This document shows positions 6,902-38,683 of a stretch of 64,000 nt of DNA, piece after piece. The notes under the pieces are model-generated. The model did not search any database. It had not been told where the DNA came from and saw only the letters and a list, made by a program, of their open reading frames with translations. The stretch's first letter is position 1; each line of letters begins with the position of its first letter. Location: assembly GCA_049285595.1 (NCBI GenBank), contig JBAQAF010000036.1, forward strand, positions 21,910 through 85,909. The letters run 5' to 3'. Origin of the DNA: Thermoplasmata archaeon (GTDB lineage: Archaea; Thermoplasmatota; Thermoplasmata; Lutacidiplasmatales; UBA184). A program made the position numbers and the translations under genes.

Positions 6902-7057
6902 TCAGTCGAATTCCGGTTCGTCGCTCATTCGCTGAATCACGTGACGGCACGACGGGCATTGGGCCATTCGCCACTCCGCCTCCACGGGGACGGGGGTCGC
7001 ACAGCGCGGGCAGACCGTGGTGGCGCTCGACGGTGGTTCCGCGCCTCCAGATCCCAT
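6902..7057 (-). CDS. Small zinc-ribbon protein (51 aa)
   Basis: Below the ORF-track size cut-off. My translation is MGSGGAEPPSSATTVCPRCATPVPVEAEWRMAQCPSCRHVIQRMSDEPEFD*. It has CPRC...CPSC knuckles, and a GGGGAG lies 8 nt upstream of the ATG. Confidence 0.45.
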   Translation of the reverse strand: MGSGGAEPPSSATTVCPRCATPVPVEAEWRMAQCPSCRHVIQRMSDEPEFD

Positions 7058-7105
7058 GGACGTCGCTCCCCGGAGCTGCATCCCACGCAGGACGTAGTAC
7101 GTCGA

Positions 7106-7270
7106 TCACCACTTACGTAGCGCCTGGGCGACCTGCTTACGGGCTGCCCGGGTCTGGTGCGGAGGAGCGTTTCGGTCGTAGGCCGTGCACCCGCATGCGC
7201 GACAACGGCCGTCCGGGCCATGCAGCCTCTTCTGATGCAGGCAGCCGGGGGTCTCGCACTCGGTCGTCAC
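7106..7270 (-). CDS. Small Cys/His-rich protein (54 aa)
   Basis: The GTG at 7270 overlaps the stop of the upstream small ORF (GTGA). Translation: (V)TTECETPGCLHQKRLHGPDGRCRACGCTAYDRNAPPHQTRAARKQVAQALRKW*. It is the C-terminal part of track ORF 7106..7423. Confidence 0.35.
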   Translation of the reverse strand: MTTECETPGCLHQKRLHGPDGRCRACGCTAYDRNAPPHQTRAARKQVAQALRKW

Positions 7271-7494
7271 GGGTACTCGCCTCGCGCCGTGAGATTCCCC
7301 GAGGGTCCCGACGGTCCCAGCCGGTTCGTGCCGACGAGGATCGAAGAGGCCCGGCCAGGCGCCGCTGCGAGAGAGGAGACCCTTCTGGCCGTCTGGTGAT
7401 CCGGGAGGGGCTCCGGCTCGCACGTGAATTGTCGTACAACGCTTTCGGCAATGATGACCCGGGTCGCTCTCGGAGTTTTGAATCGGATACCCAT
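7267..7494 (-). CDS. Small hypothetical protein (75 aa), first gene of a possible three-gene small-protein operon
   Basis: Internal ATG of ORF 7267..7605: MGIRFKTPRATRVIIAESVVRQFTCEPEPLPDHQ.... Its stop overlaps the next gene's GTG. No family recognised. Confidence 0.3.
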   Translation of the reverse strand: MGIRFKTPRATRVIIAESVVRQFTCEPEPLPDHQTARRVSSLAAAPGRASSILVGTNRLGPSGPSGNLTARGEYP

Positions 7495-7651
7495 GGCGCC
7501 ACTCTGGTAGACGTAGAAGGGTGGTTGAACCTGATAAGGACGGCTCAGGGTCCGAATCGTTCTCTGTGCCGCGAATTCGTGGCGTTCTCCGGCATCAAGA
7601 CCCACGACCTACGCGGACTCCGCCTCCGGTCGCCCGAGTCGGCTCGAACTG

Positions 7652-8200
7652 CTAGGCGGTTTTGGGCCCCCGGCGTTTACGCGGCATCGAGATCAGCATG
7701 GACGTGTAATGCGTTCCCCCCGTATTCTCCTCGGTCAGGACCCGATATCTTCGAGCGCGCGCGGCGGCAAGCAAGGCATCGAAAGCCGACTTTGTGAGGA
7801 ATCCCCAGATTCTTGGGTCCGATAGGATGAACCATCGGATCGCCTCGCCTTCCTTTCCTGCGGGTGATGCGGTCTCGCGGAGCTCCAGCTCGAAGCCGGG
7901 AGGGGCCCAAAGGACGCGGTCTTGGACCCGGTCCGCATGGACGAACGTGACCCCCGTCTCATCAAGCTGCAGCTCCTCGACGTCGGAGAAGGTAACCTTG
8001 CGCGCCAGCCCCGTGACCAGGATGAGGAGCAGCGAGAATCCCATGAGGACGATGACGCCGATGTCGTCGCTCGCGTTCGACCGTCCCGGCGCCCAGACCG
8101 TCGTGGCGGTGAGATCGATCACCCCGAGGACGAATAGAATTCCGCCCACCATCCGCATCGAGCGAAGCAGACGAGCGCGGTTGGTGACTCGCTGATTCAT
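7652..8200 (-). CDS. Hypothetical membrane protein (2 TM + soluble domain)
   Basis: Internal ATG 8200 of ORF 7652..8623: MNQRVTNRARLLRSMRMVGGILFVLGVIDL...IGVIVLMGFSLLLILVTGL, followed by a ~110-aa soluble part. The upstream 141 codons look non-coding (S/R/P/G-rich). Confidence 0.5.
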   Translation of the reverse strand: MNQRVTNRARLLRSMRMVGGILFVLGVIDLTATTVWAPGRSNASDDIGVIVLMGFSLLLILVTGLARKVTFSDVEELQLDETGVTFVHADRVQDRVLWAPPGFELELRETASPAGKEGEAIRWFILSDPRIWGFLTKSAFDALLAAARARRYRVLTEENTGGTHYTSMLISMPRKRRGPKTA

Positions 8201-8536
8201 CCGGCGCACCTCGGGAAGGTCGAATATTGCACGGAGGTCGAATCGCTCCCCACCCGAACTCGGTGGGTTTGAAGCTCCCATAGAAACTCCGAACCTTCCG
8301 CGCCGAGCGTACTCGGATACTTGGTTCGTTCTCCTTCCAGGCTCGAGCCCATAGGAATGGCGCAGAGTAACCGCGGGGCGGATTGGAAAGCCCCATGAGC
8401 AGGCACGTCTCGAATCAGTGGATGAGACTCCAGAGACCGCCCCCTTCGAGGGTGTAACCTGGAACGGCCCGCTCGGCGGTGAGATGGCCCGCCCACCAAG
8501 AGTATTAATTCCGGATGGACGCAATTCAATCATGGA

Positions 8537-8893
8537 ATGGCCCACGGTATTGAGACTTCTCAACTGAGCAGCCGTATCGAGAGCACCCTCAATTCCGACC
8601 CGGAGCGGCCCTGGTGCGTTCATCGGCTCTACGAGGAGCTCGTGGCGGCACGGGAACCCGGGAATCGCGAGGTGCTATTGGAGGCGACCCAGCGGGCGGC
8701 AGACGCGCTTGTCGTCAACGGGAAGGCGCATCGGGAATTCGTTTCCGCGATCGGGATCGGAGTCCATTGCGAGGATGCACTTTACTGGTCGAAGAGATCC
8801 ATCAAGCGGTCGTTGGCGGATTTCGGGCCGGAGTATGAGTCTCCCACCATTCTCCGTAGGCTCGCCTCGCACTTCCAGTGCCACGGGCTCTGA
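8537..8893 (+). CDS. Hypothetical protein
   Basis: 118-aa ORF with ATG start and a balanced, protein-like composition (ERPWCVHRLYEELVAAREPGNREVLLEATQRAADAL). No family recognised. Confidence 0.45.
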   Translation: MAHGIETSQLSSRIESTLNSDPERPWCVHRLYEELVAAREPGNREVLLEATQRAADALVVNGKAHREFVSAIGIGVHCEDALYWSKRSIKRSLADFGPEYESPTILRRLASHFQCHGL

Positions 8894-9272
8894 ACAGCAC
8901 CCCGCTCGGATCGAGCTCGAAGGCGGGTTCGGTCGGTAGGGCCGGGCGTTGAGTCCGTTCTCCCGCGACGACCCTCCAGCCCCGAGACCTCGTCGAGGCG
9001 CCCTGGTTGGCCCCCAAGTATTCGACCTCCCGCACGGGGCGACTCTGTGAACGTCGTCGCAGCCTCTCAGTCCAGGTGCCGGTGTTCGGTGAACCTCCTA
9101 GACCTCTCCGAGCGAGAAACTAGCTTCAAGAGCAAGGAATCCGTCGCCCAGAGCGGTCGACTGTGGAGTCATCACCTCGACACGTCGAACTGGCCTCAGT
9201 CGAAGTAGTTGGCTACGCGGAGGCTTTCCAACATCAGATCGACCGAACCGGAACAGTTGACCAAGAGGCGCG

Positions 9273-10184
9273 ATGAGCGGGGTCCCGCGGAACATGATCT
9301 ATTGTCCGAACTGCGACCGCCCTAACCCGCCGGATCGCACTACCTGCTGGGGCTGTTCCGCCTCACTCGCCCGCACGGCAACTGTCAATCCAGCTCCCCC
9401 AGCGTCTCGGCTTCCGTCGGGTGTTCCTCCGGCCGGCTTGCCAGCGCTTGGCCGGCCCCTCTCGCCGGCTCAACCTCGCGCCCCTACCCTACCCCCCTCC
9501 CGACCTCCTCCACCCGCGTCCTTCCGCACCGCTGGGGAGACGTGGAACCCGCCGGTGGCGCGCACGACCCAGAATCTGCCTTCGGACATCCCCTCGCAGC
9601 AAGCAGCTCGCGGCGCGTTTCGAATCTTCGTGGCTGTCCTGCTCGGGCTGGTCGCTGTAGTGACGGTGTTGGTCATACTCCCGATTGAGGTGAGCGCGCT
9701 GGCGAGCGCCCCTCCCACCACCGTCGGGACCCCCGCGATCAGTCAATATTTCGAAGTTCTTGAGGCGATAACGTTCGTCGGCATCGCGCTCGGAGCGGCG
9801 CAGTTGTATCTGCTCGCTACAGGGTTTGGCATGCTCGCGGGTGGCGATGAGGAATTCCGAACTCCGGCGACGATGATCTGGGTCGGCTTCGTCGGGGTCA
9901 TTTTCGTGTCCGTGGCGGTTCTGACCGAGTTTGGAGGGGGCTTCGCGCTCCTCGGCCTGCTCGCGATCGTCGTTGGGGCGATTTTCGCGGGCGTCGGGGG
10001 AATCGGAGTTCTGATCGGATTCTGGCGAATGGGAGTCACGTACGAGGTGGGACGGATGAAGCTCGCGGTGATTCTTCTCTGCATCCCGTACGTCGACGCC
10101 CTGGGCTATGCGTTCCTGCTCCGAGGAACGTACCTCGTTTGGAAGAGATTGGCCCGAGAGTCGTCCCCGACTAACTTTTTCTAA
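9273..10184 (+). CDS. Membrane protein with N-terminal zinc ribbon and Pro-rich linker
   Basis: MIYCPNCDRPNPPDRTTCWGCSASL (CxxC...CxxC), then a ~70-aa P-rich linker, then about 5 hydrophobic helices. The start is ATG 9273 or ATG 9294. Confidence 0.65.
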   Translation: MSGVPRNMIYCPNCDRPNPPDRTTCWGCSASLARTATVNPAPPASRLPSGVPPAGLPALGRPLSPAQPRAPTLPPSRPPPPASFRTAGETWNPPVARTTQNLPSDIPSQQAARGAFRIFVAVLLGLVAVVTVLVILPIEVSALASAPPTTVGTPAISQYFEVLEAITFVGIALGAAQLYLLATGFGMLAGGDEEFRTPATMIWVGFVGVIFVSVAVLTEFGGGFALLGLLAIVVGAIFAGVGGIGVLIGFWRMGVTYEVGRMKLAVILLCIPYVDALGYAFLLRGTYLVWKRLARESSPTNFF

Positions 10185-10233
10185 CGTCGGAACCCGAGGG
10201 ACGATCGATCGCCTTCCCCGTAGGTTCGTGCTT

Positions 10234-10608
10234 CTACGAATCGGACCGGTCCTCGTCCGAAAGTAGGCGGGAGGCAATCGTCCATTCCGTGAGACCGAGG
10301 CCAAGGACGACGACCCCGGCCATCAAGAGGAGCAGCAAGCCAAGGAACGGGACCTGGGAGGTCCCATAGATTCCCGCCAAGATCCAGGCCGTCGCCGCTG
10401 CACCCACGATCGCGAGCGCCGCCTCGGAATACCGGGCGTAGACTGCCGGAAGTACTCCGAGCACGACGAAGAGCCCAATCCCGGCGTATCCCCACCCGGT
10501 GTCGCCGAGGTGCGAACTCGATATCGCCAGCGTGGCCAAGGCCCCCTCCATCAACAGGAGCCCACCGAACAGCGCCACGGCCCCCCGGATCCTGGGAATA
10601 TCCTCCAT
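10234..10608 (-). CDS. Hypothetical small membrane protein (4 TM)
   Basis: MEDIPRIRGAVALFGGLLLMEGALATLAI...GLFVVLGVLPAVY...AAATAWILAGIYG...LLLLLMAGVVVLGLGL. ATG at 10608; the track start at 10689 is a GTG. Confidence 0.55.
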   Translation of the reverse strand: MEDIPRIRGAVALFGGLLLMEGALATLAISSSHLGDTGWGYAGIGLFVVLGVLPAVYARYSEAALAIVGAAATAWILAGIYGTSQVPFLGLLLLLMAGVVVLGLGLTEWTIASRLLSDEDRSDS

Positions 10609-10963
10609 CCGGCCCAGCCTACCGGAGTCCCGAATGTCCTGCGTTTCCTGAGACGTGACGTCGGTAGATGTGGGGTGGGCCTCCGTCACAATCGGCTGGA
10701 GGTTGGTCTTCCCTCCGATGCCACCGGAATTCCATCAAGGCTTCTCAATCATTCCCATTTCAGCGCCGCTATGTCCACCAGCTCCGGGATTTTTGGGTGC
10801 GAGTGCAGCAGGCGAGCTCTCGTGGCCCTCCTGCGCGAATGGCTGTGGCCGACATCGACAGGTTGCACTAGTCCGAATAACCGCATGGCGCGCCCCTCCG
10901 ATTTCGGACACCTTATCTCCTCGGTTCGGCATCTTCATAGACGTGAATCAAGCCGGCCCCGCG

Positions 10964-11665
10964 ATGAGGACTCCCTTCTTCGGGGACATCGGTCGGGGTC
11001 CGTGGGTGACTGTGGTATGGGGTGACTCCCGCGCCGCGGTCCATCGCGTCAGTTACGCGATCGCGCACGAGATCGACCCGGGCTTCGCCTGGCTGGACAT
11101 CTGCAACCTGACCGACGAACCACTGGAGCCCGGCCCGGTCGAACTGGGCTGGATCCCCGACGGCCGGCTCTTCATCACGAAGCGTCCATCGGAGGCCCGA
11201 CCTCAGCGTCCCGTGAGCCCGGGAGTGATCTGGCAAGTCGTCCGTTCGGACAACCCCGAACACGAGTTAGCGACTTTCAGGGACTTCCTCCAGCTCCCCG
11301 AAGTCACCCAGAAGATCGTTTCCATGGGGGGCCCGGCCTCGGGACGCCGTGCTGTGGTCTTCGGTAATGCAGAACGAGTGCGAGAATACTATCCAAAGTC
11401 ACTCGAGGAGATTCGCCCTTTCTTTGCGGCTGAGGTAGCCTCGGGACTGGTCCCGATCTACGGAGTCACGGGTCCCAGCGGCCCGGCTCGTATGGCGGCC
11501 GATTGTGTGTTCGAGGTGCAGACCCCGGATCTTCGGCATTGGCGAGAGGGAGCTCTCCACTGCGAGAAGGCCCCGTCAGGAGCGTCCTTCCTCGCAGGCG
11601 ATCGGACGCCGCTAACGTCCGAGCCTATCGCGTCGACCTTTACTCGCGACCGGGACTGGAAGTAG
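10964..11665 (+). CDS. Hypothetical soluble protein (233 aa)
   Basis: Internal ATG 10964 of ORF 10655..11665: MRTPFFGDIGRGPWVTVVWGDSRAAVHRVSYAIAHEIDPG.... Composition is protein-like. No family confidently recognised. Confidence 0.55.
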   Translation: MRTPFFGDIGRGPWVTVVWGDSRAAVHRVSYAIAHEIDPGFAWLDICNLTDEPLEPGPVELGWIPDGRLFITKRPSEARPQRPVSPGVIWQVVRSDNPEHELATFRDFLQLPEVTQKIVSMGGPASGRRAVVFGNAERVREYYPKSLEEIRPFFAAEVASGLVPIYGVTGPSGPARMAADCVFEVQTPDLRHWREGALHCEKAPSGASFLAGDRTPLTSEPIASTFTRDRDWK

Positions 11666-11812
11666 CGACTCGGACCACCCCGTCCGGATGAAGACGCGGA
11701 CCGAGCCCCGCAATCTCGAGGTTGACGACGGTCTTGCGATGGCGGATTCCGGCAGGAGAGGTTCGTTCCCTCGTTGCGGAGATCTCGGACCAAGGTCGAG
11801 GAGCACGCTCGT

Positions 11813-12307
11813 TCATGAGCGGCTAAGGCTCTGGAACCTCACCCGGAACGCCACGAGCCCTAAGGCAAGACCCACTGGGATGCCCACGGCCGCTCCGTCC
11901 ACGGCTCCGTCCCCGATGACCGACGTAAGGGGGAAGCAGTTGTGGACCGGCTGGCAGGAAATGGCCCACGTGATCGCGGCTGCTTGGCTCCCAATGAGGC
12001 TTCCCAGAAAAATACTGAACACAACCCCGATTGCCAGGTACTGCGCGGCCAATCCTCGGCGTGCGATGTCGGGACTCCCAATGGACCCGCCACAACAGAG
12101 TAGGGCGGCGAGAGTCGCGGGAGGGCACAGTAGTGCGGTGAGCATCGCGGCCGTTCGGTTAGTGTCCGTCGGCACGCTATGCAACCACCAGTTTCCGATG
12201 ACCACCGCCTCGTATCCTACGACGGCAAAGGCAACAATGCCCGCAAGACCACCGATCAGAGCGAGCGGGACCGTCTGCCGGAGTCGTACACCGGCGTAGG
12301 AGAGCAC
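11813..12307 (-). CDS. Hypothetical membrane protein
   Basis: 164 aa with GTG start and several hydrophobic helices (VPLALIGGLAGIVAFAVVGY, AAMLTALLCPPATLAALLCCGG, YLAIGVVFSIFLGSLIG, GIPVGLALGLVAF). I prefer it to the R/P-rich opposite-strand ORF 11688..12299. Confidence 0.55.
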   Translation of the reverse strand: MLSYAGVRLRQTVPLALIGGLAGIVAFAVVGYEAVVIGNWWLHSVPTDTNRTAAMLTALLCPPATLAALLCCGGSIGSPDIARRGLAAQYLAIGVVFSIFLGSLIGSQAAAITWAISCQPVHNCFPLTSVIGDGAVDGAAVGIPVGLALGLVAFRVRFQSLSRS

Positions 12308-12340
12308 CGCCGCAACGAACGCCGAGATTGGTGCACCGAA

Positions 12341-12520
12341 CTAACCCATTACCGTTTCGAGATCGAGTCCCTGTGGCGAGAAGTCTCCGGCTTGGGGGCC
12401 TAGCCAGCCCGACAGCGAGACCGCTTTCAATGCCAGGTTGCCCGCGAACCAGCCTCCGACCAAGGCGATGATGACTGACGTGTGTATCAGCCACGAGTGC
12501 CTCGGGCCGGCCGTCGCCAT
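12341..12520 (-). CDS. Possible small membrane protein (59 aa)
   Basis: Internal ATG of the TTG-started ORF 12341..12673: MATAGPRHSWLIHTSVIIALVGGWFAGNLALKAVSLSGWLG.... Weak evidence. Confidence 0.25.
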   Translation of the reverse strand: MATAGPRHSWLIHTSVIIALVGGWFAGNLALKAVSLSGWLGPQAGDFSPQGLDLETVMG

Positions 12521-27928: not shown

Positions 27929-28669
27929 CTAGAATCCGGCGAGGAGCTCCGCGATCGCCGCCTTCGGGTCGGCCGCGCGGGCCACCGCGCTCGCGACGAG
28001 CACCCCGGCGCTGCCCAGCTCGATCGCTCGATGCACGTCGTGGCGGTCGCGCACTCCGGCGCCGCACAGCACGCGGGTCTGGGGAGCGACTTGGCGCACG
28101 GCGAGGACCGTCTCCGAGACGACCTCCGGGCGCGCCGAGGAGACGGAGCGATCTCCGCCGATCAGCTCCGGCGGCTCCACCGCGAGGTACGCCGGAGCCA
28201 CCGCCGCAAGGGCGCGCGCCCGGTCGACCGTCCCCGCGCAGACGACGGCGACCAGGCCGAGGGCCTCGAGCCGTTGGCACGCGTCCTCCACATCGGGACC
28301 GCCGATCGGGTGCTCCGAATGATTCAGCAGACTGCCGCGGGCACCCGCCGCCCGAAGAGATTCGGGGGGAATCGAGCCGGTGCGGGCCCCGGCGTCCACC
28401 GGGTCGACGTGCTGGGCGAGCACAGGGCAACGGACGGCAGCGGCGACCCGCGCGAGATCCGGGGCTGCGGGGGCGACCGCCGTCGGAACCCCGGCCGCCC
28501 GTCCGAGCCCGTCGAGGATCGTCGCCATCTCTACGGCGCCGTTCCCGAGGCAGTTCGGGTACGTCTTCAGGTTCAGCAGGAGCAGCGGGGTGCCGAGCGC
28601 CGCGCGCTCAGTGGGTCGCGGCCGCTTTGGCGCGCTTCGGCCGAGAGCAGATGGCGTACTCGTCCCCAT
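27929..28669 (-). CDS. tpiA: Triosephosphate isomerase, archaeal short type
   Basis: PLLLLNLKTYPNCLG...VLAQHVDPVDAGARTGS...LLNHSEH...AVEPPELIG...LCGAGV. The start is uncertain: ATG 28669 gives a 27-aa S/R/P-rich extension that overlaps the upstream small ORF. Confidence 0.85.
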   Translation of the reverse strand: MGTSTPSALGRSAPKRPRPTERAALGTPLLLLNLKTYPNCLGNGAVEMATILDGLGRAAGVPTAVAPAAPDLARVAAAVRCPVLAQHVDPVDAGARTGSIPPESLRAAGARGSLLNHSEHPIGGPDVEDACQRLEALGLVAVVCAGTVDRARALAAVAPAYLAVEPPELIGGDRSVSSARPEVVSETVLAVRQVAPQTRVLCGAGVRDRHDVHRAIELGSAGVLVASAVARAADPKAAIAELLAGF

Positions 28670-28817
28670 CGAAGAAGACCTCCCGGTCGGGGTGCTTGCG
28701 CTGGAGTTCGGAGATTCGCGAGAGGACGTCTTCGAGCGTGGTCGACTCGTCATTCGGATCGATCCTCAGGTGCACCGTCTTTTCGGGCCGATCCGTCGTA
28801 TGACCCGTTCCGGGCAT
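28608..28817 (-). CDS. Small acidic hypothetical protein (69 aa)
   Basis: MPGTGHTTDRPEKTVHLRIDPNDESTTLEDVLSRISELQRKHPDREVFFDGDEYAICSRPKRAKAAATH. Composition is protein-like, in contrast to the overlapping tpiA-frame extension. No family recognised. Confidence 0.45.
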   Translation of the reverse strand: MPGTGHTTDRPEKTVHLRIDPNDESTTLEDVLSRISELQRKHPDREVFFDGDEYAICSRPKRAKAAATH

Positions 28818-28974
28818 GAGGCTCCGGGGAGCCGCCTAGACGTAAGGGGCCATTAAGGATGCGAGAAGCCCCCCGACCGCTCCCTCGCGACGGACGAGCG
28901 AGTTATCCAACGCACTTCGCCCGGCTCCCGGCGGGGAATCCCGCCTGGGTTCCCCCGCCGGGAATCGGGCAATT

Positions 28975-28982
28975 CGTAAATA
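28975..28982 (+). promoter_or_regulatory. TATA-like box for acs
   Basis: ttcGTAAATAgc lies ~22 nt upstream of ATG 29000. Confidence 0.45.
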
Positions 28983-28999
28983 GCGTGCGAAGCTGGCTC

Positions 29000-31129
29000 A
29001 TGGGAGGGTTGACGATGGCGGAAGGTCGCGCGAAGGAGTCCGAGGAGTCCGGCAATCTCACCGAGGCCGAGATCGCGGTCCACTGGAAGGAGGAGGAGTA
29101 CTTCCTCCCGTCGCCGAAGTTCACCGGTCAGGCGAACCTCACGGATCCGGCGATCATGGAGCGGTTCGGGCTCGATCGGTTCCCCGAGTGCTTTCGCGAG
29201 TACGCCGACCTGCTCACGTGGGACCAGTACTGGCACACCACGCTCGACACGAGCACTGCCCCGTTCTACAAGTGGTTCGTCGGTGGGAAGCTGAACGTCT
29301 CGGTGAACTGCATCGATCGGCACCTGCCGAAGTACCGGAACAAGGCCGCGATCATCTTCCAGGGGGAGCCGGAAGAGGAGCCCCCGATCTCGATCACGTA
29401 CCAGGAACTGTGGATCCGCGTGAACGAGTTCGCGGCCGTGCTGCGCGATTTCTGCCACCTCAAGGCCGGCGACCGGGTGACGATCCACATGCCGATGACC
29501 CCCGAGCTTCCGATCACGATGCTCGCGTGCGCGCGGCTGGGCGTCGTTCACTCGGTCGTCTTCGGCGGCTTCAGCGGCGAAGCGGCCGGCCACCGAGCCG
29601 CCGACTCCGGCAGTAAAGTGATGATCACGATGGACGGTTACTGGAGGAACGGCAAGGCGACCGATCACAAGGCGGTCCTCCAGTCGTCGATCGACGCCGC
29701 CAAGGCGGACGGTCATACCGTCGAGAGGGTGCTCATCTGGCAGCGGTACCGCGACCGGCTCCTGACGACCGTTCCCATGACGCCCGGACGCGACTACCTC
29801 GTCCAGGAGCTGCTCAAGGAGACGGTTGGAAAGCGGGTCGATCCGGTGTCGATGCCGGCGGAGGCGCCGTTCTTCCTGATGTACACGAGCGGTACGACGG
29901 GAAAGCCCAAAGGCTGCCAGCATTCGACGGGCGGCTACCTCGCCTACGTCGCGGGGACGTCGAAGTTCATCGAGGACATCCACCCGACCGACGTCTACTG
30001 GTGCATGGCCGACATCGGCTGGATCACGGGCCACTCCTACATCGTCTACGGTCCGCTCGCGCTCGCCGCGACGACCGTGATGTACGAGGGGGTGCCGACG
30101 TTCCCGGACCCCGGGCGCCCGTGGCGGATCGCCGAGCGGCTCGGCGTGAACATCTTCCACACGTCGCCGACGGCGATCCGACAGCTGCGCAAGCTCGGGC
30201 CGGACGAGCCGAAGAAGTACAACTATCACTTCAAGCACATGACGACGGTCGGGGAGCCGATCGAGCCGGAGGCGTGGCGGTGGTACTACCATTCGGTCGG
30301 CAAGGACGAGGCGGTGATCGTCGACACCTGGTGGCAGACGGAGACCGGCGGGTTCCTCTGCTCGACGAAGCCCGGGATCGACCGGATGAAGCCGGGGAGC
30401 GCCGGCCCCGGGATGCCCGGGATCCACCCGATCATCTTCGACGAGAACGGCCATGTCATCACGGCCGGCTCGAACAAGGCCGGCAATATCTGCATCCAGA
30501 ACCCGTGGCCGGGCCTGATGCAGACGATCTGGGGGGATCCGGAACGGATGGTCCGGCAGTACTTCCAGAAGTACAACAAGAACCCGAAGAGCAAGGACTG
30601 GAAGGATTGGCCGTACTTCGCCGGGGACGGCGCGCTGATCTCGGCCGACGGCTACTACCGCATCCTCGGCCGGATCGATGACGTGATCAACGTCGCCGGG
30701 CACCGCCTGGGGACGAAGGAGATCGAGTCGGCCTGCCTGACGGTCCCCGAGGTCGCCGAGGCGGCCGTCGTGCCGGTCGCGGACGAGCTCAAGGGACGGG
30801 TCGTCGAGGTGTACGTCGCGGTCAAGCCCGGGACGAAGGCGACTCCGGCCGAGGTCGCCCAGAAGGTGACCCACGCGATCGAGACATCGATCGGCAAGAT
30901 CGCCCGACCGAAGACGGTCCACATCGTCCCGGATATGCCGAAGACGCGCTCCGGGAAGATCATGCGCCGCGTGCTCGCGGGGATCTCGAACCGATTGGAC
31001 ACCGGGGACATCACGACCCTCGCGAACCCGGATATCGTGGAACAGATCCGTAAGCAGGTCCAGGGCGATGCGCCGGTCGTTCTGAAGAAGGGGCCCGCGG
31101 ACATCGAGGCGTTCGGAAAGGTCGACTAG
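29000..31129 (+). CDS. acs: Acetyl-CoA synthetase (AMP-forming)
   Basis: WFVGGKLNVSVNCIDRHL, FFLMYTSGTTGKPKG, YWCMADIGWITGHSY, TWWQTETGG, YFAGDGA...DGYYRILGRIDDVINVAGHRLGT, PKTRSGKIMRR. The start is trimmed from 28859 to ATG 29000. Confidence 0.92.
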   Translation: MGGLTMAEGRAKESEESGNLTEAEIAVHWKEEEYFLPSPKFTGQANLTDPAIMERFGLDRFPECFREYADLLTWDQYWHTTLDTSTAPFYKWFVGGKLNVSVNCIDRHLPKYRNKAAIIFQGEPEEEPPISITYQELWIRVNEFAAVLRDFCHLKAGDRVTIHMPMTPELPITMLACARLGVVHSVVFGGFSGEAAGHRAADSGSKVMITMDGYWRNGKATDHKAVLQSSIDAAKADGHTVERVLIWQRYRDRLLTTVPMTPGRDYLVQELLKETVGKRVDPVSMPAEAPFFLMYTSGTTGKPKGCQHSTGGYLAYVAGTSKFIEDIHPTDVYWCMADIGWITGHSYIVYGPLALAATTVMYEGVPTFPDPGRPWRIAERLGVNIFHTSPTAIRQLRKLGPDEPKKYNYHFKHMTTVGEPIEPEAWRWYYHSVGKDEAVIVDTWWQTETGGFLCSTKPGIDRMKPGSAGPGMPGIHPIIFDENGHVITAGSNKAGNICIQNPWPGLMQTIWGDPERMVRQYFQKYNKNPKSKDWKDWPYFAGDGALISADGYYRILGRIDDVINVAGHRLGTKEIESACLTVPEVAEAAVVPVADELKGRVVEVYVAVKPGTKATPAEVAQKVTHAIETSIGKIARPKTVHIVPDMPKTRSGKIMRRVLAGISNRLDTGDITTLANPDIVEQIRKQVQGDAPVVLKKGPADIEAFGKVD

Positions 31130-31322: not shown

Positions 31323-32027
31323 TCAGAGGCTCGAAGACTTCGGCACGATCCGCGGGGCGTACGCCGCCACGCGCAGGAGGTGGATCGACACGATCACCAA
31401 CCAGAGGAGGAGCGGGGCGACGATCAGCCGCTCCATGCCCCCCATGCCGAGCCCCGCGTAGATCTTGGCGACGAACAGGAGCAGGGCGATCACCCCGATC
31501 AGGCCGGAGAAGAGGGTGTACGACCGGTAGCCGTCCCAACGGGTATCCCGGAACATCGCGAAGCCGAGGACGATCAGAGCGAGGTTCCCTGCCGCGAACG
31601 ACAGGAGGGCGGAGATCGAGTGGACCTGAAGGTTCACGTTCTCCGGCGAGAGGCCGACGCCGATCGCTCCGATCCCCGTGAGCACGAGGAGGCCGAGTCC
31701 GATCGAGCGGCTCGACCGGTCGGGGAAGGCGCTTCGGATCAGGAGCACGCCGAGGATGGCGAGGAGACCGAGAACGATGATGGAGGCGTTGAAGACGACA
31801 TGCCACGGGGAGCATACGTACGGGGAGGTCGCGTTCGGCCAGGCACCGCACCCGGTGTTCCCGAGGTCGCTGATGACGTTCTTCGAGAGGCTGTACGGCG
31901 TTGTCCAGCGCAGCTCGACGACCCCCATCACGACCACGAACTGGACCGCGGCGATCAGCCAGACGATCGCCGCGTGGTGGACCGATCGGTGGACCAGCGG
32001 TCCCAGCCGGGGCTCGGCCGATGCCAT
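31323..32027 (-). CDS. DUF998-like integral membrane protein
   Basis: MASAEPRLGPLVHRSVHHAAIVWLIAAVQFVV...NVISDLGNTGCG...PWHVVFNASIIVLGLLAILG, with about 7 helices. ATG at 32027; the track start at 32078 is a GTG. Confidence 0.6.
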   Translation of the reverse strand: MASAEPRLGPLVHRSVHHAAIVWLIAAVQFVVVMGVVELRWTTPYSLSKNVISDLGNTGCGAWPNATSPYVCSPWHVVFNASIIVLGLLAILGVLLIRSAFPDRSSRSIGLGLLVLTGIGAIGVGLSPENVNLQVHSISALLSFAAGNLALIVLGFAMFRDTRWDGYRSYTLFSGLIGVIALLLFVAKIYAGLGMGGMERLIVAPLLLWLVIVSIHLLRVAAYAPRIVPKSSSL

Positions 32028-32040
32028 CGAGGGGCCGTCC

Positions 32041-32184
32041 CTAATCCTCGCGCGCGTTGCGTTCGTAGGAGGCGTCACTCGTCTTCTTGAGACGGGCGCC
32101 GTCGCGGTCGCAGGTCGGGCGCGCGCTGGGCGGAACGTCGATCACGTAGCCGCCCCCGCACTTCGGGCACTCGTAGTACGTCAT
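32041..32184 (-). CDS. Small zinc-ribbon protein (47 aa)
   Basis: C-terminal part of ORF 32041..32343 from ATG 32184: MTYYECPKCGGGYVIDVPPSARPTCDRDGARLKKTSDASYERNARED* (CPKC...C.RD). Confidence 0.5.
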   Translation of the reverse strand: MTYYECPKCGGGYVIDVPPSARPTCDRDGARLKKTSDASYERNARED

Positions 32185-32270: not shown

Positions 32271-33209
32271 ATGTCGGTGAACCGCGCGGGATCGCCGCGC
32301 GCGGACCCGATGCCCCGGCGGACCCTCCGCTCGACGACGTCATCGGTCGACGCGGGAGCTCGGCAGCGGTTCCTCGACAACGATGCGTACCGCGCGGGGC
32401 GCGAGTGGATGCGCTACGAGGGGACGCCCCAGCGCGATCTGTTCCGCGAATTGCGCTGCCGCTTTCTCCAGCGGCATTCGGCCGACGCTCGGTGGGTCGC
32501 GGATCTCGGGTCCGGACCGGGCCGGTTCACGAGCGCGCTCGGCCCGGAGGGGGCGCGACGGGTCGCGCTCGACCTCTCGCGGGAGATGCTGACGTACCAC
32601 CCCACCCCCGCTTCCCCGCGTCCCTCCGACGCCTCGGCTCCGCTCGACCGGGTGGTCGGTGACGCCGTCGCGCCGCCGCTCGCCGACGGGGCGTTCGGAG
32701 CGGTCGCCCTGCTCGGAAATGCGGTTGGGTTCGCCGGCGGTGACTCCGAGCGGGTGATCGAGGCGGCGGAGCGTCTGGTCTCGCCCGGCGGATCCTTGAT
32801 CGTCGAGATCGCCCCGGGGCCCGGCGAGCGCTCCCGCTATCTGGCCCGGCTCCCGGAAGGGGCGGTGGGTCGACTGCTGGCGGCCCCGCCCGCCGCGGTG
32901 GTCCCCCGGATCGAGCGCGAGGGGTTCGAGGTCGAACCAACCCGCCATCGATCGGATTCGTTCCGCCGATGGGCCGCGAAGGAGCTGCACCGTCGATGGC
33001 AGCGGCCGGGGTGGACGATTCTTGAGACGCTCTCGATCGCCCCGTGTCTGGGGGCTGACCCGGTCGCCATCGCTCGCGTCTTCGCCGACTCTAAGGCGCG
33101 GGACCACCTGTTCGACGTCGAGGAACGGGTCGGGCGAAGCCCCTCCCGGTGGACCTCGGCGGCGGCCGTGCTGACCTCTGCTCGACGGGACCTCCGTGGA
33201 CAGAATTAA
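32271..33209 (+). CDS. Class I SAM-dependent methyltransferase
   Basis: Motif I VADLGSGPGRFTSAL, then RRVALDLSREML and GDAVAPPLADGAFGAVALLGN. Confidence 0.8.
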   Translation: MSVNRAGSPRADPMPRRTLRSTTSSVDAGARQRFLDNDAYRAGREWMRYEGTPQRDLFRELRCRFLQRHSADARWVADLGSGPGRFTSALGPEGARRVALDLSREMLTYHPTPASPRPSDASAPLDRVVGDAVAPPLADGAFGAVALLGNAVGFAGGDSERVIEAAERLVSPGGSLIVEIAPGPGERSRYLARLPEGAVGRLLAAPPAAVVPRIEREGFEVEPTRHRSDSFRRWAAKELHRRWQRPGWTILETLSIAPCLGADPVAIARVFADSKARDHLFDVEERVGRSPSRWTSAAAVLTSARRDLRGQN

Positions 33210-33244
33210 GACCCGTGGGAACCCATCGTTCGGACCGGGACTCG

Positions 33245-35950
33245 ATGCCGAAAGCGTCTCCGGCCGCCCGTCCCGCCAAATCTACGGCGGGGGCCACCGT
33301 CGCCGGTAAGGAAGATCTCGTGATGGCGAAGGAGGATGCCCTCCTTCAGCTCAAGATCGGCCGGTCGGCGCATCTCTACGCGGTCGGGATCTCCGCGGCG
33401 CTCGCACTCGATGGGATCCTGGTCCTCTTTCTGTTCTCGCACCTCCCGTCGCTCCCGTTCGCCGCGACCCGCCTCGCCGCGCTCGGTCCGACGTTCTACC
33501 TGCTGATCCCCGCTCTCGCCGGACTCTCCATCGCCGCGGTCGGCCTCGTGACGAAGTGGGAAGCGTTCCAGCTGTGGCCGTGGGAGCCACACTTCTCCAC
33601 CACCGTCGCCGCGGTCGGGCTGAACGTCGTCATCGCGGTCGTCTACTTCTTGCGCGTCGCGGGAACGGCCCCGTTCGCCCATACCGCCCTCTTCCCCTGG
33701 TTCCTGCCGCTCGAGTTCGCCGGCATCTCGCTCGCCTTCCTCGGTCTTGTGATGACCTGGAACGAGTGGACCCCGCAGCAGTGGGCGGCGGCCGGCGCCG
33801 CCGTCCTTCCGCTCCTCACCCCCCTGCTCGTGTACGACCGTCCGACCAGTACGTCGACCGAGGCGGACGCGGTCGCGGTCGCATTGTTCCTCTCGGCGAT
33901 CTTCTACCAGACCGCCGGCTCGTTCCTCCACCTGCTCTCCTCGGGCACCGGACCTCACGAGAACGCCCTGATCGCGTCCGGCCAGAACCGGATCGTCCGG
34001 CTCGCCGACGAGACCCGACAGAAGGAGGAGGCGCTGCGCTTCCGCGAGGCGGCGATCGTCCGCCGCGAAGCGGACGCGGAGACGACCGAGGCCGGCTTGC
34101 GGCGCCAGGAACTGCAGTTCGCGGAGGCGCGCAAGGAGCTCGACGGACGCACCGCGAAGGACCGCGGCCGCAGCGAGGAGATCGACCGCCGCGACCGCGA
34201 ACTCGCCGGGAAGCTCGCCGAGGCCGAGTCATCGATCCAGGCCCTGACGAACCGGACCAACGCCGTGGAGCTACGGGAGCAGGAGATCGCACGGCAGCTC
34301 CCGCAGGTCACGGCCCGGGAACAGCGGGTCGCCCAGAAGGAAGGGGACCAGGCGCGGCGCGATACCGAATTCTCCCATCAGCAGCAGGAAGTTCAGCGTC
34401 GCGTCGATGCCGCCGCCGAGACCGAGACGCGTCTCGAGTCCCGCCGAAAGCAACTGGACGAGAAGACCGCCGAGCTGTTGCGGCGGGAGGGGGAACTGAC
34501 CGCCCGCGGTGGGGGACCGGCCGCGAGCTCCAAGACGACGGCCGCGGGGGGCGAGGTCGCCGCCCGTGAACTCAAGCTGCTGCAGCTCAAGGCCACGCTC
34601 GACGAGCAGAACATCATTCTCGGCCGCCGCGCCCGCGAGGTCGCCCAGCGGGAGAAGGCCGCCTCCGACGCCCTCAAACAGGCGACGGAGAAGCTGGGCC
34701 TCCTCGCCGCCCGCGAAAGCGGGGTGGCCCAGAGGGAAGCGAGCCTCGCGGACCGCTTGAAGGCGGCGGACGAGCGACGGGCGCAGTACGAGGCGGCGGC
34801 GACCGAGTACCAGGACCGGCTCTCCGACTTCGGCCGAAAGCAGGTCGACGTCGCCCAGCGGGGCGCCGACCTCGACCGGTCGCTCCAGACGGTCACCGAC
34901 CGAGAGTCGACCATCTCCGACCGGGAACGTCGGCTGCGCGGCAGCCTGATGGAGATCGACCAGCGCGAGCGGGACCTGATCGCCCGGGAGCGCACCGTCG
35001 AGGCGCACGAGGCGGAGATGAGCCTCCGCCGCCAGGAGGCGGATCGGGAGGGCGGTCTCACCCTCGCCGGTCTCGCCGCGGTCGCCGCCGCCGGTCAGAT
35101 CGACCTTCCACCCCCCCGGCCCGGCCCGAGGTCCGCCGGCGGACGCCCCGCCCGACGGGGGGCGGCGGAGGGGGAGGAGGGCTCGACGAGCCCGACCGAC
35201 CTTCTTGCGCCGACCTCGAGCCGACGCTACTCGGACCGACTGCCGTCCGGGACGCCCCGCCTCGACGACCTGCTTCTCGGGGGGATCCCTGCCCGGAACC
35301 ATGTCGTCCTGGTCGGCGATGCGTTCGTCGGCAAGGAGGTCGTCCTCTACGCGTTCATCGCCGAGGGCCTGAAGCGCGGGGAACCGGTCGTCATCGTCAC
35401 CGCCTCCCGGTCGCCGACCGAGATCGCCCAGTCGATCGGCGTCGTACTGCCGCAGTTCCTCGAGTACGACCAGCTCGGCATGGTCACCTGGATCGACGCC
35501 TCGACGACCGGCGGCGCCGCGGGCCCCCGGCGGCTGGTGACGAAAGGGTCCGATGACCGGGCCGGGATCCTCTCCTCGCTCGTCCAGGCGGCCCGTCCGA
35601 TCGAGGAAGAGAAGAAGGGGCCGTTCCGCGTCGGGTTCCTCGGCCTCTCCGCCGTCTTCGCCCACGCCGACGAACGGGCGAGCTTCTCGTTCCTGCAGAA
35701 CGTGGTCGGGATCCTGAAGCCGCGCGAGGCGCTCGCGATGTACTCGCTCGAAGGCGGGGCGCTCAGCGAGCCGCAGGTCGAGTCGTTGCTCGGCCGAATG
35801 GACGGGGCGATCGTCTTCCGCCAGGACCGCGACCGGACGTTCCTCTCCGTGAAAGGATTCGGCGACGTACAGACCCGGGATTGGGTCGAGTGCCGCGCGA
35901 CGAACCGCGCGCTGATCGTGGGATCGTTCGCCCTCGAGCGGATCCGGTAG
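33245..35950 (+). CDS. Multi-pass membrane / long coiled-coil / C-terminal KaiC-RecA-like (degenerate Walker A/B) protein
   Basis: About 6 N-terminal helices (AVGISAALALDGILVLFLF ... AVALFLSAIFYQTAGSFLHLL). An E/R/A/Q-rich segment of ~380 aa follows, with recurring RE-x-x-h-x-x-RE motifs (REQEIARQ, REQRVAQKE, RESGVAQRE, RESTISDRE, RERDLIARE). The C-terminus reads RLDDLLLGGIPARNHVVLVGDAFVGKEVVLYAFIAEGLKRGEPVVIVTASRSPTEIAQSIG, KaiC-like. The start is ATG 33245, or possibly ATG 33323; the track start 33149 overlaps the methyltransferase. Confidence 0.8.
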   Translation: MPKASPAARPAKSTAGATVAGKEDLVMAKEDALLQLKIGRSAHLYAVGISAALALDGILVLFLFSHLPSLPFAATRLAALGPTFYLLIPALAGLSIAAVGLVTKWEAFQLWPWEPHFSTTVAAVGLNVVIAVVYFLRVAGTAPFAHTALFPWFLPLEFAGISLAFLGLVMTWNEWTPQQWAAAGAAVLPLLTPLLVYDRPTSTSTEADAVAVALFLSAIFYQTAGSFLHLLSSGTGPHENALIASGQNRIVRLADETRQKEEALRFREAAIVRREADAETTEAGLRRQELQFAEARKELDGRTAKDRGRSEEIDRRDRELAGKLAEAESSIQALTNRTNAVELREQEIARQLPQVTAREQRVAQKEGDQARRDTEFSHQQQEVQRRVDAAAETETRLESRRKQLDEKTAELLRREGELTARGGGPAASSKTTAAGGEVAARELKLLQLKATLDEQNIILGRRAREVAQREKAASDALKQATEKLGLLAARESGVAQREASLADRLKAADERRAQYEAAATEYQDRLSDFGRKQVDVAQRGADLDRSLQTVTDRESTISDRERRLRGSLMEIDQRERDLIARERTVEAHEAEMSLRRQEADREGGLTLAGLAAVAAAGQIDLPPPRPGPRSAGGRPARRGAAEGEEGSTSPTDLLAPTSSRRYSDRLPSGTPRLDDLLLGGIPARNHVVLVGDAFVGKEVVLYAFIAEGLKRGEPVVIVTASRSPTEIAQSIGVVLPQFLEYDQLGMVTWIDASTTGGAAGPRRLVTKGSDDRAGILSSLVQAARPIEEEKKGPFRVGFLGLSAVFAHADERASFSFLQNVVGILKPREALAMYSLEGGALSEPQVESLLGRMDGAIVFRQDRDRTFLSVKGFGDVQTRDWVECRATNRALIVGSFALERIR

Positions 35951-38283: not shown

Positions 38284-38559
38284 CTACTCCGCGCCCATGT
38301 GCCGAGGCTGTGGGATCGACTTCGGCTGATCGGCGTCGGTCGGCATGCCGGTCTTGCCGACCACGATGTCGCAATCCTTCCAGCTGACCCCGACGGTCAC
38401 CCGAGGGAAGGCGACCTTGAGCGTATAGTTCGCGAGCTTTCCGAGCACCAGGCCCACCGACCCGGAGGCGAGGTTCGGATTCATCGTAGTCAGGTCTCTC
38501 GTAAGGATGACCCGGGTCTCGCCAAAGACGATCCGCTCGAGCTCCTTGCGGTCCTCCAT
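38284..38559 (-). CDS. Hypothetical protein (91 aa)
   Basis: MEDRKELERIVFGETRVILTRDLTTMNPNLASGSVGLVLGKLANYTLKVAFPRVTVGVSWKDCDIVVGK.... No family recognised. Confidence 0.4.
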   Translation of the reverse strand: MEDRKELERIVFGETRVILTRDLTTMNPNLASGSVGLVLGKLANYTLKVAFPRVTVGVSWKDCDIVVGKTGMPTDADQPKSIPQPRHMGAE

Positions 38560-38683
38560 GGTCCAGCGGGGGCGTAGCACTCGCGCCGAGACATAACCCT
38601 GCCGGAGGCGGGCCCGGAGCCCCGAACCGAGGGGAAATCAGGTCGAGCGAGACTGTAACACGGAAATCCCGTCGAAAACAGGG

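Follow-up and report, generated by a model that had tools for sequence, protein, structure and literature searches.

A protein of 901 residues that joins a six-helix membrane domain, a two-armed coiled coil, a linker and an inactivated KaiC-like domain is encoded in a 64,000-nt stretch of DNA from a Thermoplasmata archaeon (GenBank assembly GCA_049285595.1, contig JBAQAF010000036.1, positions 21,910–85,909), here called the window. The complete gene, stop codon included, lies at 33245..35950 on the forward strand. It is real, intact and strongly conserved in uncultured soil and peat Thermoplasmata archaea. There is about an even chance that its product is a scaffold for assembly or signalling that is tethered to the membrane, lacks catalysis and has an inactivated KaiC (iKaiC), DUF7504-like domain at its core. 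Parts of the protein are given below as residue ranges with their window coordinates, all on the forward strand.

The inactivated KaiC/RecA-fold domain spans residues 661–893 (35225..35923) and was delimited using Pfam, NCBIfam, a PDB search, AlphaFold2 (AF2) and Foldseek. A first-pass annotation, made from the letters alone, had started the domain at nt 35258 and assigned it a RecA/KaiC fold. That nucleotide opens R672, where the motif RLDDLLLGGIP begins, and the fold is borne out by the model and its structural matches. Pfam KaiC (PF06745) matches residues 667–784 with 42.7 bits against a cut-off of 26.6 (E 5e-11), and archaeal KaiC-type NCBIfam models match at E 1.6e-14 (TIGR03877) to 1e-8, far below their equivalog cut-offs. 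The PDB sequence search returned PH0284 (2dr3) at E 5.6e-10. The AF2 domain model, built on 25 orthologous domains, has a mean predicted local distance difference test (pLDDT) score of 87.9. Its top Foldseek match is again PH0284/2dr3 (E 8e-14, template-modelling score 0.79–0.82, ~235 columns), followed by KaiC, SSO2452 and FlaH. The protein closes with a free C-terminal tail, SFALERIR-COOH (residues 894–901; 35924..35947), which is disordered in the model, with pLDDT <50 over the last 7 residues.

Mg-ATP hydrolysis in the RecA superfamily needs the Walker A Ser/Thr, a catalytic Glu pair and the Walker B Asp. An active KaiC-type ATPase would show Walker A GxxxxGK[ST], the Glu pair and Walker B hhhhD; the domain has none of them. 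Its altered P-loop, GDAFVGKE (residues 691–698; 35315..35338), carries Glu in the Ser/Thr place and aligns in HMMER with GGPGTGKT of PH0284. In the same alignment VTASRSP faces VALEEHP, so that S721-R722 (35405..35410) stands in place of the catalytic Glu-Glu, a position conserved as [AS]R in the family. The Walker B remnant FRVGFLGLS (residues 794–802; 35624..35650) lacks the Asp; RVGFLGLS aligns with RVVIDSIT of KaiC 8zn5_B, and homologues conserve it as R[VT][GA]F[LF]GL[SA]. Both degenerate strings had been picked out in the first pass, and in the HMMER alignments E698 falls on the Walker A Ser/Thr of KaiC, L799/G800 on its Walker B Asp-Ser.

GxxFxGKE is present in 119 of 128 fetched homologues, the other nine being mainly N-terminal fragments. 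P-loop residues G691, F694, G696 and K697 are invariant across >1000 relatives; many Arg residues of the domain are invariant too. Because the catalytic residues are missing family-wide, the altered site is a fixed derived state and not decay. By the established RecA-superfamily mechanism, replacement of all three catalytic elements would abolish Mg-ATP hydrolysis; binding is not thereby abolished. An unchanging Gly, Lys and Phe in the P-loop argue for a pocket that is still in use. The earlier wording, nucleotide-binding-impaired, is thus right about the missing catalytic residues and questionable about the pocket, and from these patterns loss of hydrolysis appears the safer inference than impaired nucleotide binding.

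A domain-only HMMER search of 1.84 billion cluster representatives returned 1088 proteins at E<1e-3, with 110 at E<1e-30. The domain is C-terminal in nearly all of the 150 relatives listed. Most of these keep G-x-x-[FYH]-x-G-K-E, and in a few the motif ends in D, Q, H, L, N, T or S. Even the few peripheral members with GKT/GKS have neither the Glu pair nor a Walker B Asp, so the whole clade is an inactivated KaiC lineage. The tail, [SA]F.L[ED][RH]I[RK], closes nearly all family members.

N-terminal partners vary. Proteins of the present type have a homologous six-helix domain and coiled coil (840–970 aa). Others have a zinc ribbon and/or helix-hairpin-helix (HhH) with a coiled coil (both in P0197, HHH_5 only in P0186, Zn-ribbon only in P0185) or HD-CE with an nSTAND1 NTPase (P0243), and the domain also stands alone, without a partner, at ~245 aa (P0253). 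P0243, a 1257-aa protein from a JGI metagenome, combines an HD-CE nuclease-like module, nSTAND1 and the C-terminal inactivated KaiC domain, and is conflict-system-like. STAND proteins usually carry sensor or binding domains or repeats at the place taken here by the inactivated KaiC domain. At locus L086, tandem paralogues of 1062 and 628 aa (7001–10189 and 10557–12443) both end in a KaiC/DUF7504-type domain and lie a few kb from a LonB-type protease gene; the tandem copies hint at hetero-oligomers.

DUF7504 (PF24336) and DUF7090 (PF23365) are uncharacterised archaeal KaiC-like families, and DUF7504 is the best specific match for the C-terminal half of the domain. Scanned alone, the domain scores 27.0 bits against a cut-off of 27; DUF7504 is not listed for the full protein. 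Relatives score it well (P0088 34, P0186 64 and P0253 70 bits; 59–70 bits in relatives joined by HMMER at E 1e-28 to 1e-40), whereas the window protein only touches the threshold. One sister protein is named 'DUF7504 family protein' at NCBI. No paper mentioning DUF7504 was found in the literature. The weaker Pfam matches of the domain are MEDS, DUF7504, DUF7090 and PAXNEB; MEDS (PF14417) reaches 19–21 bits against a threshold of 29.8, and at most 25.8 in orthologues.

The region between the membrane domain and the linker is E/R-rich over ~360 aa (residues ~243–603; nt 33971–35053). An 18-sequence alignment splits it into two arms at a G/A/S segment. Coiled-coil arm 1 (residues 243–420; 33971..34504) has about 25 heptads in one register with the consensus L-x-x-R-E-x-x. 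Arm 2 (residues 438–603; 34556..35053) has about 24 heptads with the same consensus and is colinear with arm 1. The G/A/S-rich break between them (residues 421–437; 34505..34555) varies in length and is the proposed hairpin turn. Arm 2 ends in a short conserved hydrophobic patch, GLTLAGLAAVAAA (residues 604–616; 35054..35092), with the consensus DLxxAGLAAVAAAD and LAGLAAVAAA at residues 607–616. A Pro/Arg/Gly-rich linker of ~45 aa, variable in length, follows (residues 617–660; 35093..35224); it had been recognised as a Pro/Arg linker in the first pass. The six RE-x-x-h-x-x-RE strings reported there are likewise all present, at residues 267, 358, 490, 553, 574 and 581. Within an arm the RE units are set apart by whole numbers of heptads (91, 63 and 28 residues, all divisible by 7). 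Chance does not account for the strings, in which an unbroken heptad repeat becomes visible. Of the ~380-aa coiled coil first described, the E/R-rich heptad helix therefore stands, at ~360 aa, but it forms two arms around a G/A/S break and not one rod.

Each arm holds one register over ~25 heptads without a stutter. The hydrophobic share is 93–95 % of cells at one heptad position versus 15–43 % at the other six. L/V/I/M fill ~80–90 % of cells at position a; Arg/Lys account for ~60 % at d and Glu for ~40 % at e. Arg/Lys at the core d position is atypical for a coiled coil. In a parallel homodimer the d-d' layers stack like charges, Arg on Arg; in antiparallel pairing a faces d'. By this standard coiled-coil geometry, antiparallel arms would form Leu-Arg layers with Glu(e) nearby.

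The arms align colinearly with each other (hhalign probability 95 %), which suggests an internal duplication. Their pairing was examined by covariation on 137 full-length sequences (effective number, Neff, ~92). In mean-field direct coupling analysis the diagonal i+j=859 was the best of 145 antiparallel diagonals (z 3.9; next 2.4), and no parallel diagonal exceeded z 2.4. With gappy columns removed it still ranked first (z 3.75), holding 14 top-5 % pairs, spread over residues 263–419, versus a mean of 6.7. The midpoint, 859/2 = 429.5, is the centre of the break, and 859 mod 7 matches a-d' pairing of both registers. In mutual information with average product correction the same diagonal was the top antiparallel one (z 2.9); two parallel diagonals were higher (z 3.7 and 3.4), so mutual information alone does not favour an antiparallel arrangement. 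The similar length of the two arms around a variable break was also counted for a hairpin. On these sequence patterns there is moderate support for pairing of the arms as an antiparallel hairpin, whose length would be ~25 nm (a rise of ~0.15 nm for each of about 175 residues).

The picture of a domain tethered by a long rod, drawn in the first pass, is thus probably wrong geometrically, as the two arms are equal and covariation favours the antiparallel hairpin. An antiparallel hairpin would return the KaiC-like domain to the vicinity of the membrane on a flexible leash of ~45 aa, and in that model the patch LAGLAAVAAA would lie back at the membrane too.

The linker region as a whole, that is the rod, measures 366–465 aa across the family. 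Arm-length correlation was uninformative as a hairpin test because this length hardly varies. Similar strings, [LI]x[LA]RExx[LIV], recur in more distant members and in the Zn-ribbon class, but with interrupted registers, and a global heptad-register analysis fails on the distant members for that reason. PF27881, which is found on most orthologues, is CRWN_N, a faint coiled-coil match, and was set aside as noise and not taken as a named family. Matches to RNase_Y_N, FlbB, SMC, JetC and PbeC were also coiled-coil noise (SMC models E 0.3–0.6).

The protein is membrane-anchored, as had been proposed from about six N-terminal transmembrane helices. Six were counted, both by Kyte-Doolittle scan of relatives and in an AF2 model. 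The six-helix membrane domain covers residues 41–232 (33365..33940), as defined by AF2, topology and per-loop conservation. It is preceded by a cytoplasmic, N-terminal amphipathic helix (residues 18–40; 33296..33364) with the conserved motif DALLQLKIGR, of which G39 and R40 are invariant, distant members included. A juxtamembrane motif, GSFLHLLSSGTGPHE (residues 225–239; 33917..33961), is nearly invariant in close orthologues. The AF2 model of residues 18–280 (pLDDT 89.6), for which 30 sequences with identities as low as 19 % were used, contains the amphipathic helix, six transmembrane helices and the start of arm 1.

Lys plus Arg counts are 4.2 at the N-terminus, 1.8 in loop 2-3, 1.4 in loop 4-5 and 4.5 after helix 6; the remaining loops have 0.6, 0.4 and 0.2. 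This distribution and the per-loop conservation indicate an N-in/C-in topology. The cytoplasmic side holds all conserved motifs of the membrane domain: DALLQLKIGR, KWExxQLWPWExHF in loop 2-3, the TWxxW motif (TWxGWxxR) in loop 4-5, and SGSFLHLISSGTxxHE. The outer loops are short (~12–13 aa), variable and poorly conserved, and the domain is without an external sensor domain. Foldseek found no relative of its fold in the PDB (best E 0.15, template-modelling score <0.4). Sequence searches found the domain only within its own family, and a word-indexed search gave only same-family fragments.

A search of 5.8 billion proteins returned >120 full-length relatives at 55–91 % identity, all of them, where named, from Thermoplasmata metagenome-assembled genomes. 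In the one-genome-per-species GTDB representative set there were 91 matching stretches; 80 loci were kept, and the locus counts given below rest on these. The title reads Thermoplasmata on 79 of the 80 and 'bacterium' on the remaining one. On more distant members the labels read Thermoplasmata, Thermoplasmatota or 'Euryarchaeota archaeon RBG...'. The number and spread of these relatives indicate purifying selection and were counted in favour of the scaffold reading. Public names of orthologues are only 'ATPase domain-containing protein' or 'KaiC/GvpD/RAD55 family RecA-like ATPase'.

As a scaffold, the protein might work as follows. The arms would pair in antiparallel fashion and extend a hairpin of ~25 nm into the cytoplasm. 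The pseudo-ATPase domain, on its ~45-aa leash, would lie near the membrane, next to the cytoplasmic face on which its own membrane domain is conserved. Without ATP hydrolysis, the P-loop pocket, KaiC-type subunit interfaces and C-terminal tail would serve oligomerisation or partner docking, and a complex would thereby be recruited to or organised at the membrane. A non-hydrolysing role in oligomerisation or docking has likewise been proposed for iKaiC and MEDS domains. Presence of the coiled coil, iKaiC domain and tail behind Zn-ribbon plus HhH or STAND NTPase modules fits a generic portable module for different cellular addresses.

Several points weigh against the scaffold reading. No classical signalling domain (histidine kinase, REC, PAS, HAMP or MCPsignal) was found in the protein by Pfam. 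We know of no partner, ligand or oligomeric state for it. There is no gene neighbour conserved across the whole family, and no other KaiC paralogue was found within the window. The covariation is moderate at Neff ~92 and would fit an intramolecular hairpin or intermolecular antiparallel pairing alike. The invariant P-loop Lys leaves room for some chemistry.

Structural use as a membrane skeleton or spacer is unlikely, and it is the alternative that survives best. Pseudo-KaiC rings would join membrane-anchored rods into a sub-membrane lattice that supports or spaces mechanically, with a housekeeping and not a signalling function. Consistent with this, rod sequence and length are strongly conserved, there is no sensor domain, the outer loops are short and poorly conserved, and in all 80 loci kept the gene sits in the same syntenic, housekeeping-type neighbourhood (triosephosphate isomerase, TIM, and acetyl-CoA synthetase). 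Against it, the module of rod and domain also occurs on Zn-ribbon/HhH and STAND modules, which are not membrane-bound, and in a hairpin the ring domain and the anchor would be at the same end, a poor geometry for a lattice strut. In the window, TIM is encoded at 27929–28753 (reverse strand) and AMP-forming acetyl-CoA synthetase at 28859–31129 (forward strand). TIM stays near the gene in distant lineages, as a convergent neighbour in L087 and L088; its proximity looks like old synteny and not a functional link.

On the upstream side is the gene of a class I S-adenosylmethionine-dependent methyltransferase (32271..33209, forward strand; Pfam Methyltransf_11/25), which ends 35 bp upstream. Divergent from it is a gene for a Zn-ribbon mini-protein of about 46–47 aa, MTYYECPKCGG... 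(32041..32181, reverse strand), and downstream of that one for a DUF998 membrane protein (31323..32078, reverse strand; Pfam DUF998 E 3e-20). The mini-protein (CPxCG...C, MTYYECPKCGGGYVIDVPPSARPTCDRDGARL...) is conserved beside DUF998 across the clade; its gene is 64–91 % identical by tblastn, and genes of 47–49 aa are called at that place in L001–L003. A 100-aa ORF over the methyltransferase start is probably an over-extended Zn-ribbon ORF. The methyltransferase lies directly upstream on the same strand, at 35–40 bp, in 73 loci, DUF998 is a neighbour in 67, the Zn-ribbon gene in at least 28 and a convergent 2-hydroxyacid dehydrogenase in 61. In the most divergent clade members (38–48 % identity) downstream synteny is lost, and the block of DUF998 and Zn-ribbon genes diverging from the methyltransferase and the present gene is retained.

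More distant orthologues (L087, L088, L089) have no adjacent methyltransferase; the gene is directly downstream of ABC transporter genes. Conservation of the methyltransferase beside orthologues, raised in the first pass, therefore holds within the order-level clade and fails beyond it. Within the clade the enzyme is a probable co-transcription partner. Because it is absent beside distant orthologues and its matches are only generic, the link is clade-specific and may be functional or merely syntenic. A specific methyltransferase function could not be assigned, as the class I matches (daptide methyltransferase, UbiE-like) were all generic and far below cut-offs. Scans for sigma-70 promoters and intrinsic terminators were uninformative for an archaeon. 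In these distant stretches (L087 1–4914, L089 277–4152 and L088 1586–4745), the upstream gene codes for a MacB/FtsX-type permease of ~1000 aa in L087 and L089 and for a different ABC transporter in L088. Each of the three loci encodes a 128-aa protein of unknown function, which in L089 is cut off by the end of the locus. A further L089 gene (8791–11823) specifies a protein with AAA_16, DUF835 (another iKaiC type) and tetratricopeptide repeats. Elsewhere in the window, 38284–38580 (reverse strand) encodes a protein of ~91–98 aa that neither Pfam nor NCBIfam matches; in 63 related loci it is conserved at 68–81 % identity, even where its neighbours have moved.

Chemoreceptor-like adaptation would give the methyltransferase a role, and it is quite improbable. 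The E/R-rich hairpin would be methylated by the co-transcribed enzyme, as hairpins of methyl-accepting chemotaxis proteins (MCPs) are by CheR, and methylation would tune the pseudo-KaiC output. The tight same-strand spacing in 73 loci speaks for it, as does persistence of the pair in divergent members without downstream synteny, and a transmembrane domain with a long, probable Glu/Arg-rich hairpin resembles MCPs. However, the enzyme is a generic Methyltransf_11/25 class I protein and not CheR, neither MCPsignal nor HAMP is matched, and distant orthologues lack the adjacent gene. The adjacency itself is weak evidence for a methylation link because the whole region is syntenic in the clade.

Little probability also attaches to the protein still being an enzyme, in which the GK-E, Ser-Arg and Leu-Gly site has a non-canonical nucleotide activity (Mg-independent binding with slow turnover, or phosphotransfer) and the protein acts as a membrane KaiC-type timer or kinase. 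The invariant P-loop Gly, Lys and Phe and the many Arg residues imply a functional pocket, but the whole family, >1000 proteins strong, has substitutions at the Walker A Ser/Thr, at the Glu pair and at the Walker B Asp.

A bolder proposal, at most a long shot, makes the protein the receptor of a Thermoplasmatota-specific pseudo-KaiC-ring system. The hairpin would be reversibly methylated by the co-transcribed methyltransferase, and methylation would decide whether the tethered pseudo-KaiC domain, by way of its P-loop remnant and tail, joins partners. These might include the soluble Zn-ribbon/HhH paralogues, which have the rod and domain module in common with it. If true, this would be a functional parallel to chemoreceptor adaptation and an undescribed signalling or assembly system.

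The gene model itself is secure. The ORF at 33149..35950 (forward strand) contains the gene and gives the 901-aa product when started at ATG 33245. This is the likely start, because orthologue N-termini read MPKGSP/MPKEAG and the conserved TVPxPEDLExAK precedes the internal Met27, which some gene callers use as the start. Window GC content is 63–72 %, and many long spurious ORFs occur, other frames included. Overlapping antisense and out-of-frame ORFs of up to 464 aa lie at 34271–35665 (reverse strand) and in other frames over 33149–35950; these are Arg/Pro/Gly-rich artefacts of 70 % GC and not genes. That the gene is a decayed pseudogene or a chance ORF is suggested only by such a background, and the chance is negligible given full-length orthologues at 38–91 % identity, the 91 stretches, invariant motifs, no frame breaks and high AF2 confidence in both modelled domains.

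A hub-like, central place in archaeal signal transduction has been proposed for KaiC-like proteins. To our knowledge, almost none have been studied beyond the cyanobacterial clock, ArlH, GvpD and the Cir proteins, and inactivated forms are known from sequence analysis only. In the family described here, a pseudo-KaiC domain is brought to the membrane in many soil and peat Thermoplasmata species, and the case is well defined and strongly conserved. The family offers testable oddities in its GK-E P-loop, which is fixed across >1000 proteins, its conserved free tail, Arg at core d and six-helix domain without a structural relative. The ligand of the pocket and the docking partner of the tail would tell how non-catalytic KaiC modules work generally.

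Compared with named systems, the domain shares its fold with PH0284 (2dr3), SSO2452 (2w0m) and ArlH/FlaH (4yds) at template-modelling scores of 0.69–0.82, together with the LD.LLgGGiP motif and the P-loop Lys. Those three are soluble single-domain ATPases in which GK[ST], the catalytic Glu and the Walker B Asp are all canonical; the window protein lacks all three elements, and its domain is C-terminal in a 901-aa membrane protein. In MCPs, as here, the membrane anchor leads into a long Glu-rich helical hairpin (probably antiparallel in the present protein), and in the present case a methyltransferase gene adjoins. The likeness is one of layout only, without homology: a globular pseudo-ATPase follows the hairpin here, the methyltransferase is not CheR, and Pfam finds no MCPsignal (PF00015) or HAMP match in the protein. 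In SMC/Rad50 a split ATPase head is joined by an antiparallel coiled coil, whereas here the N-terminus is a six-helix membrane domain and a complete RecA-like domain is at the C-terminus. Elp4/5/6 (PAXNEB) of Elongator, eukaryotic and archaeal, have a RecA/KaiC-like fold with a degenerate nucleotide site and form a ring-shaped binding platform. PAXNEB matches to the N-terminal motif are weak (E 1e-4, below cut-off, about 60 residues), and the context is unrelated. An anti-phage defence role was considered and set aside, as PADLOC gave no meaningful match.

The nearest described class is that of inactivated KaiC domains in archaeal signalling proteins, named iKaiC (Galperin et al. 2018, PMC5847659). 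That paper cites Makarova, Galperin & Koonin 2017 for the concept. A description of a six-helix domain, LxxRExx rod and iKaiC domain was not found in the literature, where Makarova et al. 2017 may list its arCOG. The first-pass view that no described system has this architecture thus stands for the combination, for which no paper was found, and gives way for the domain, a known type, namely an inactivated KaiC of a DUF7504-like clade: the domain class is already recognised, and the architecture is undescribed and unstudied. Common to the present protein and the described forms (MEDS PF14417, DUF835 PF05763 and haloarchaeal iKaiC) are KaiC homology, disrupted catalytic motifs and a fused non-enzymatic module in archaea. 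Pfam finds no REC, histidine kinase, PAS or HalOD1 in the protein, and none is present among annotated neighbours. Whereas REC, histidine-kinase, PAS or HalOD1 modules are the fusion partners of the iKaiC domains in the literature, here a six-helix membrane domain and a two-armed coiled coil take their place.

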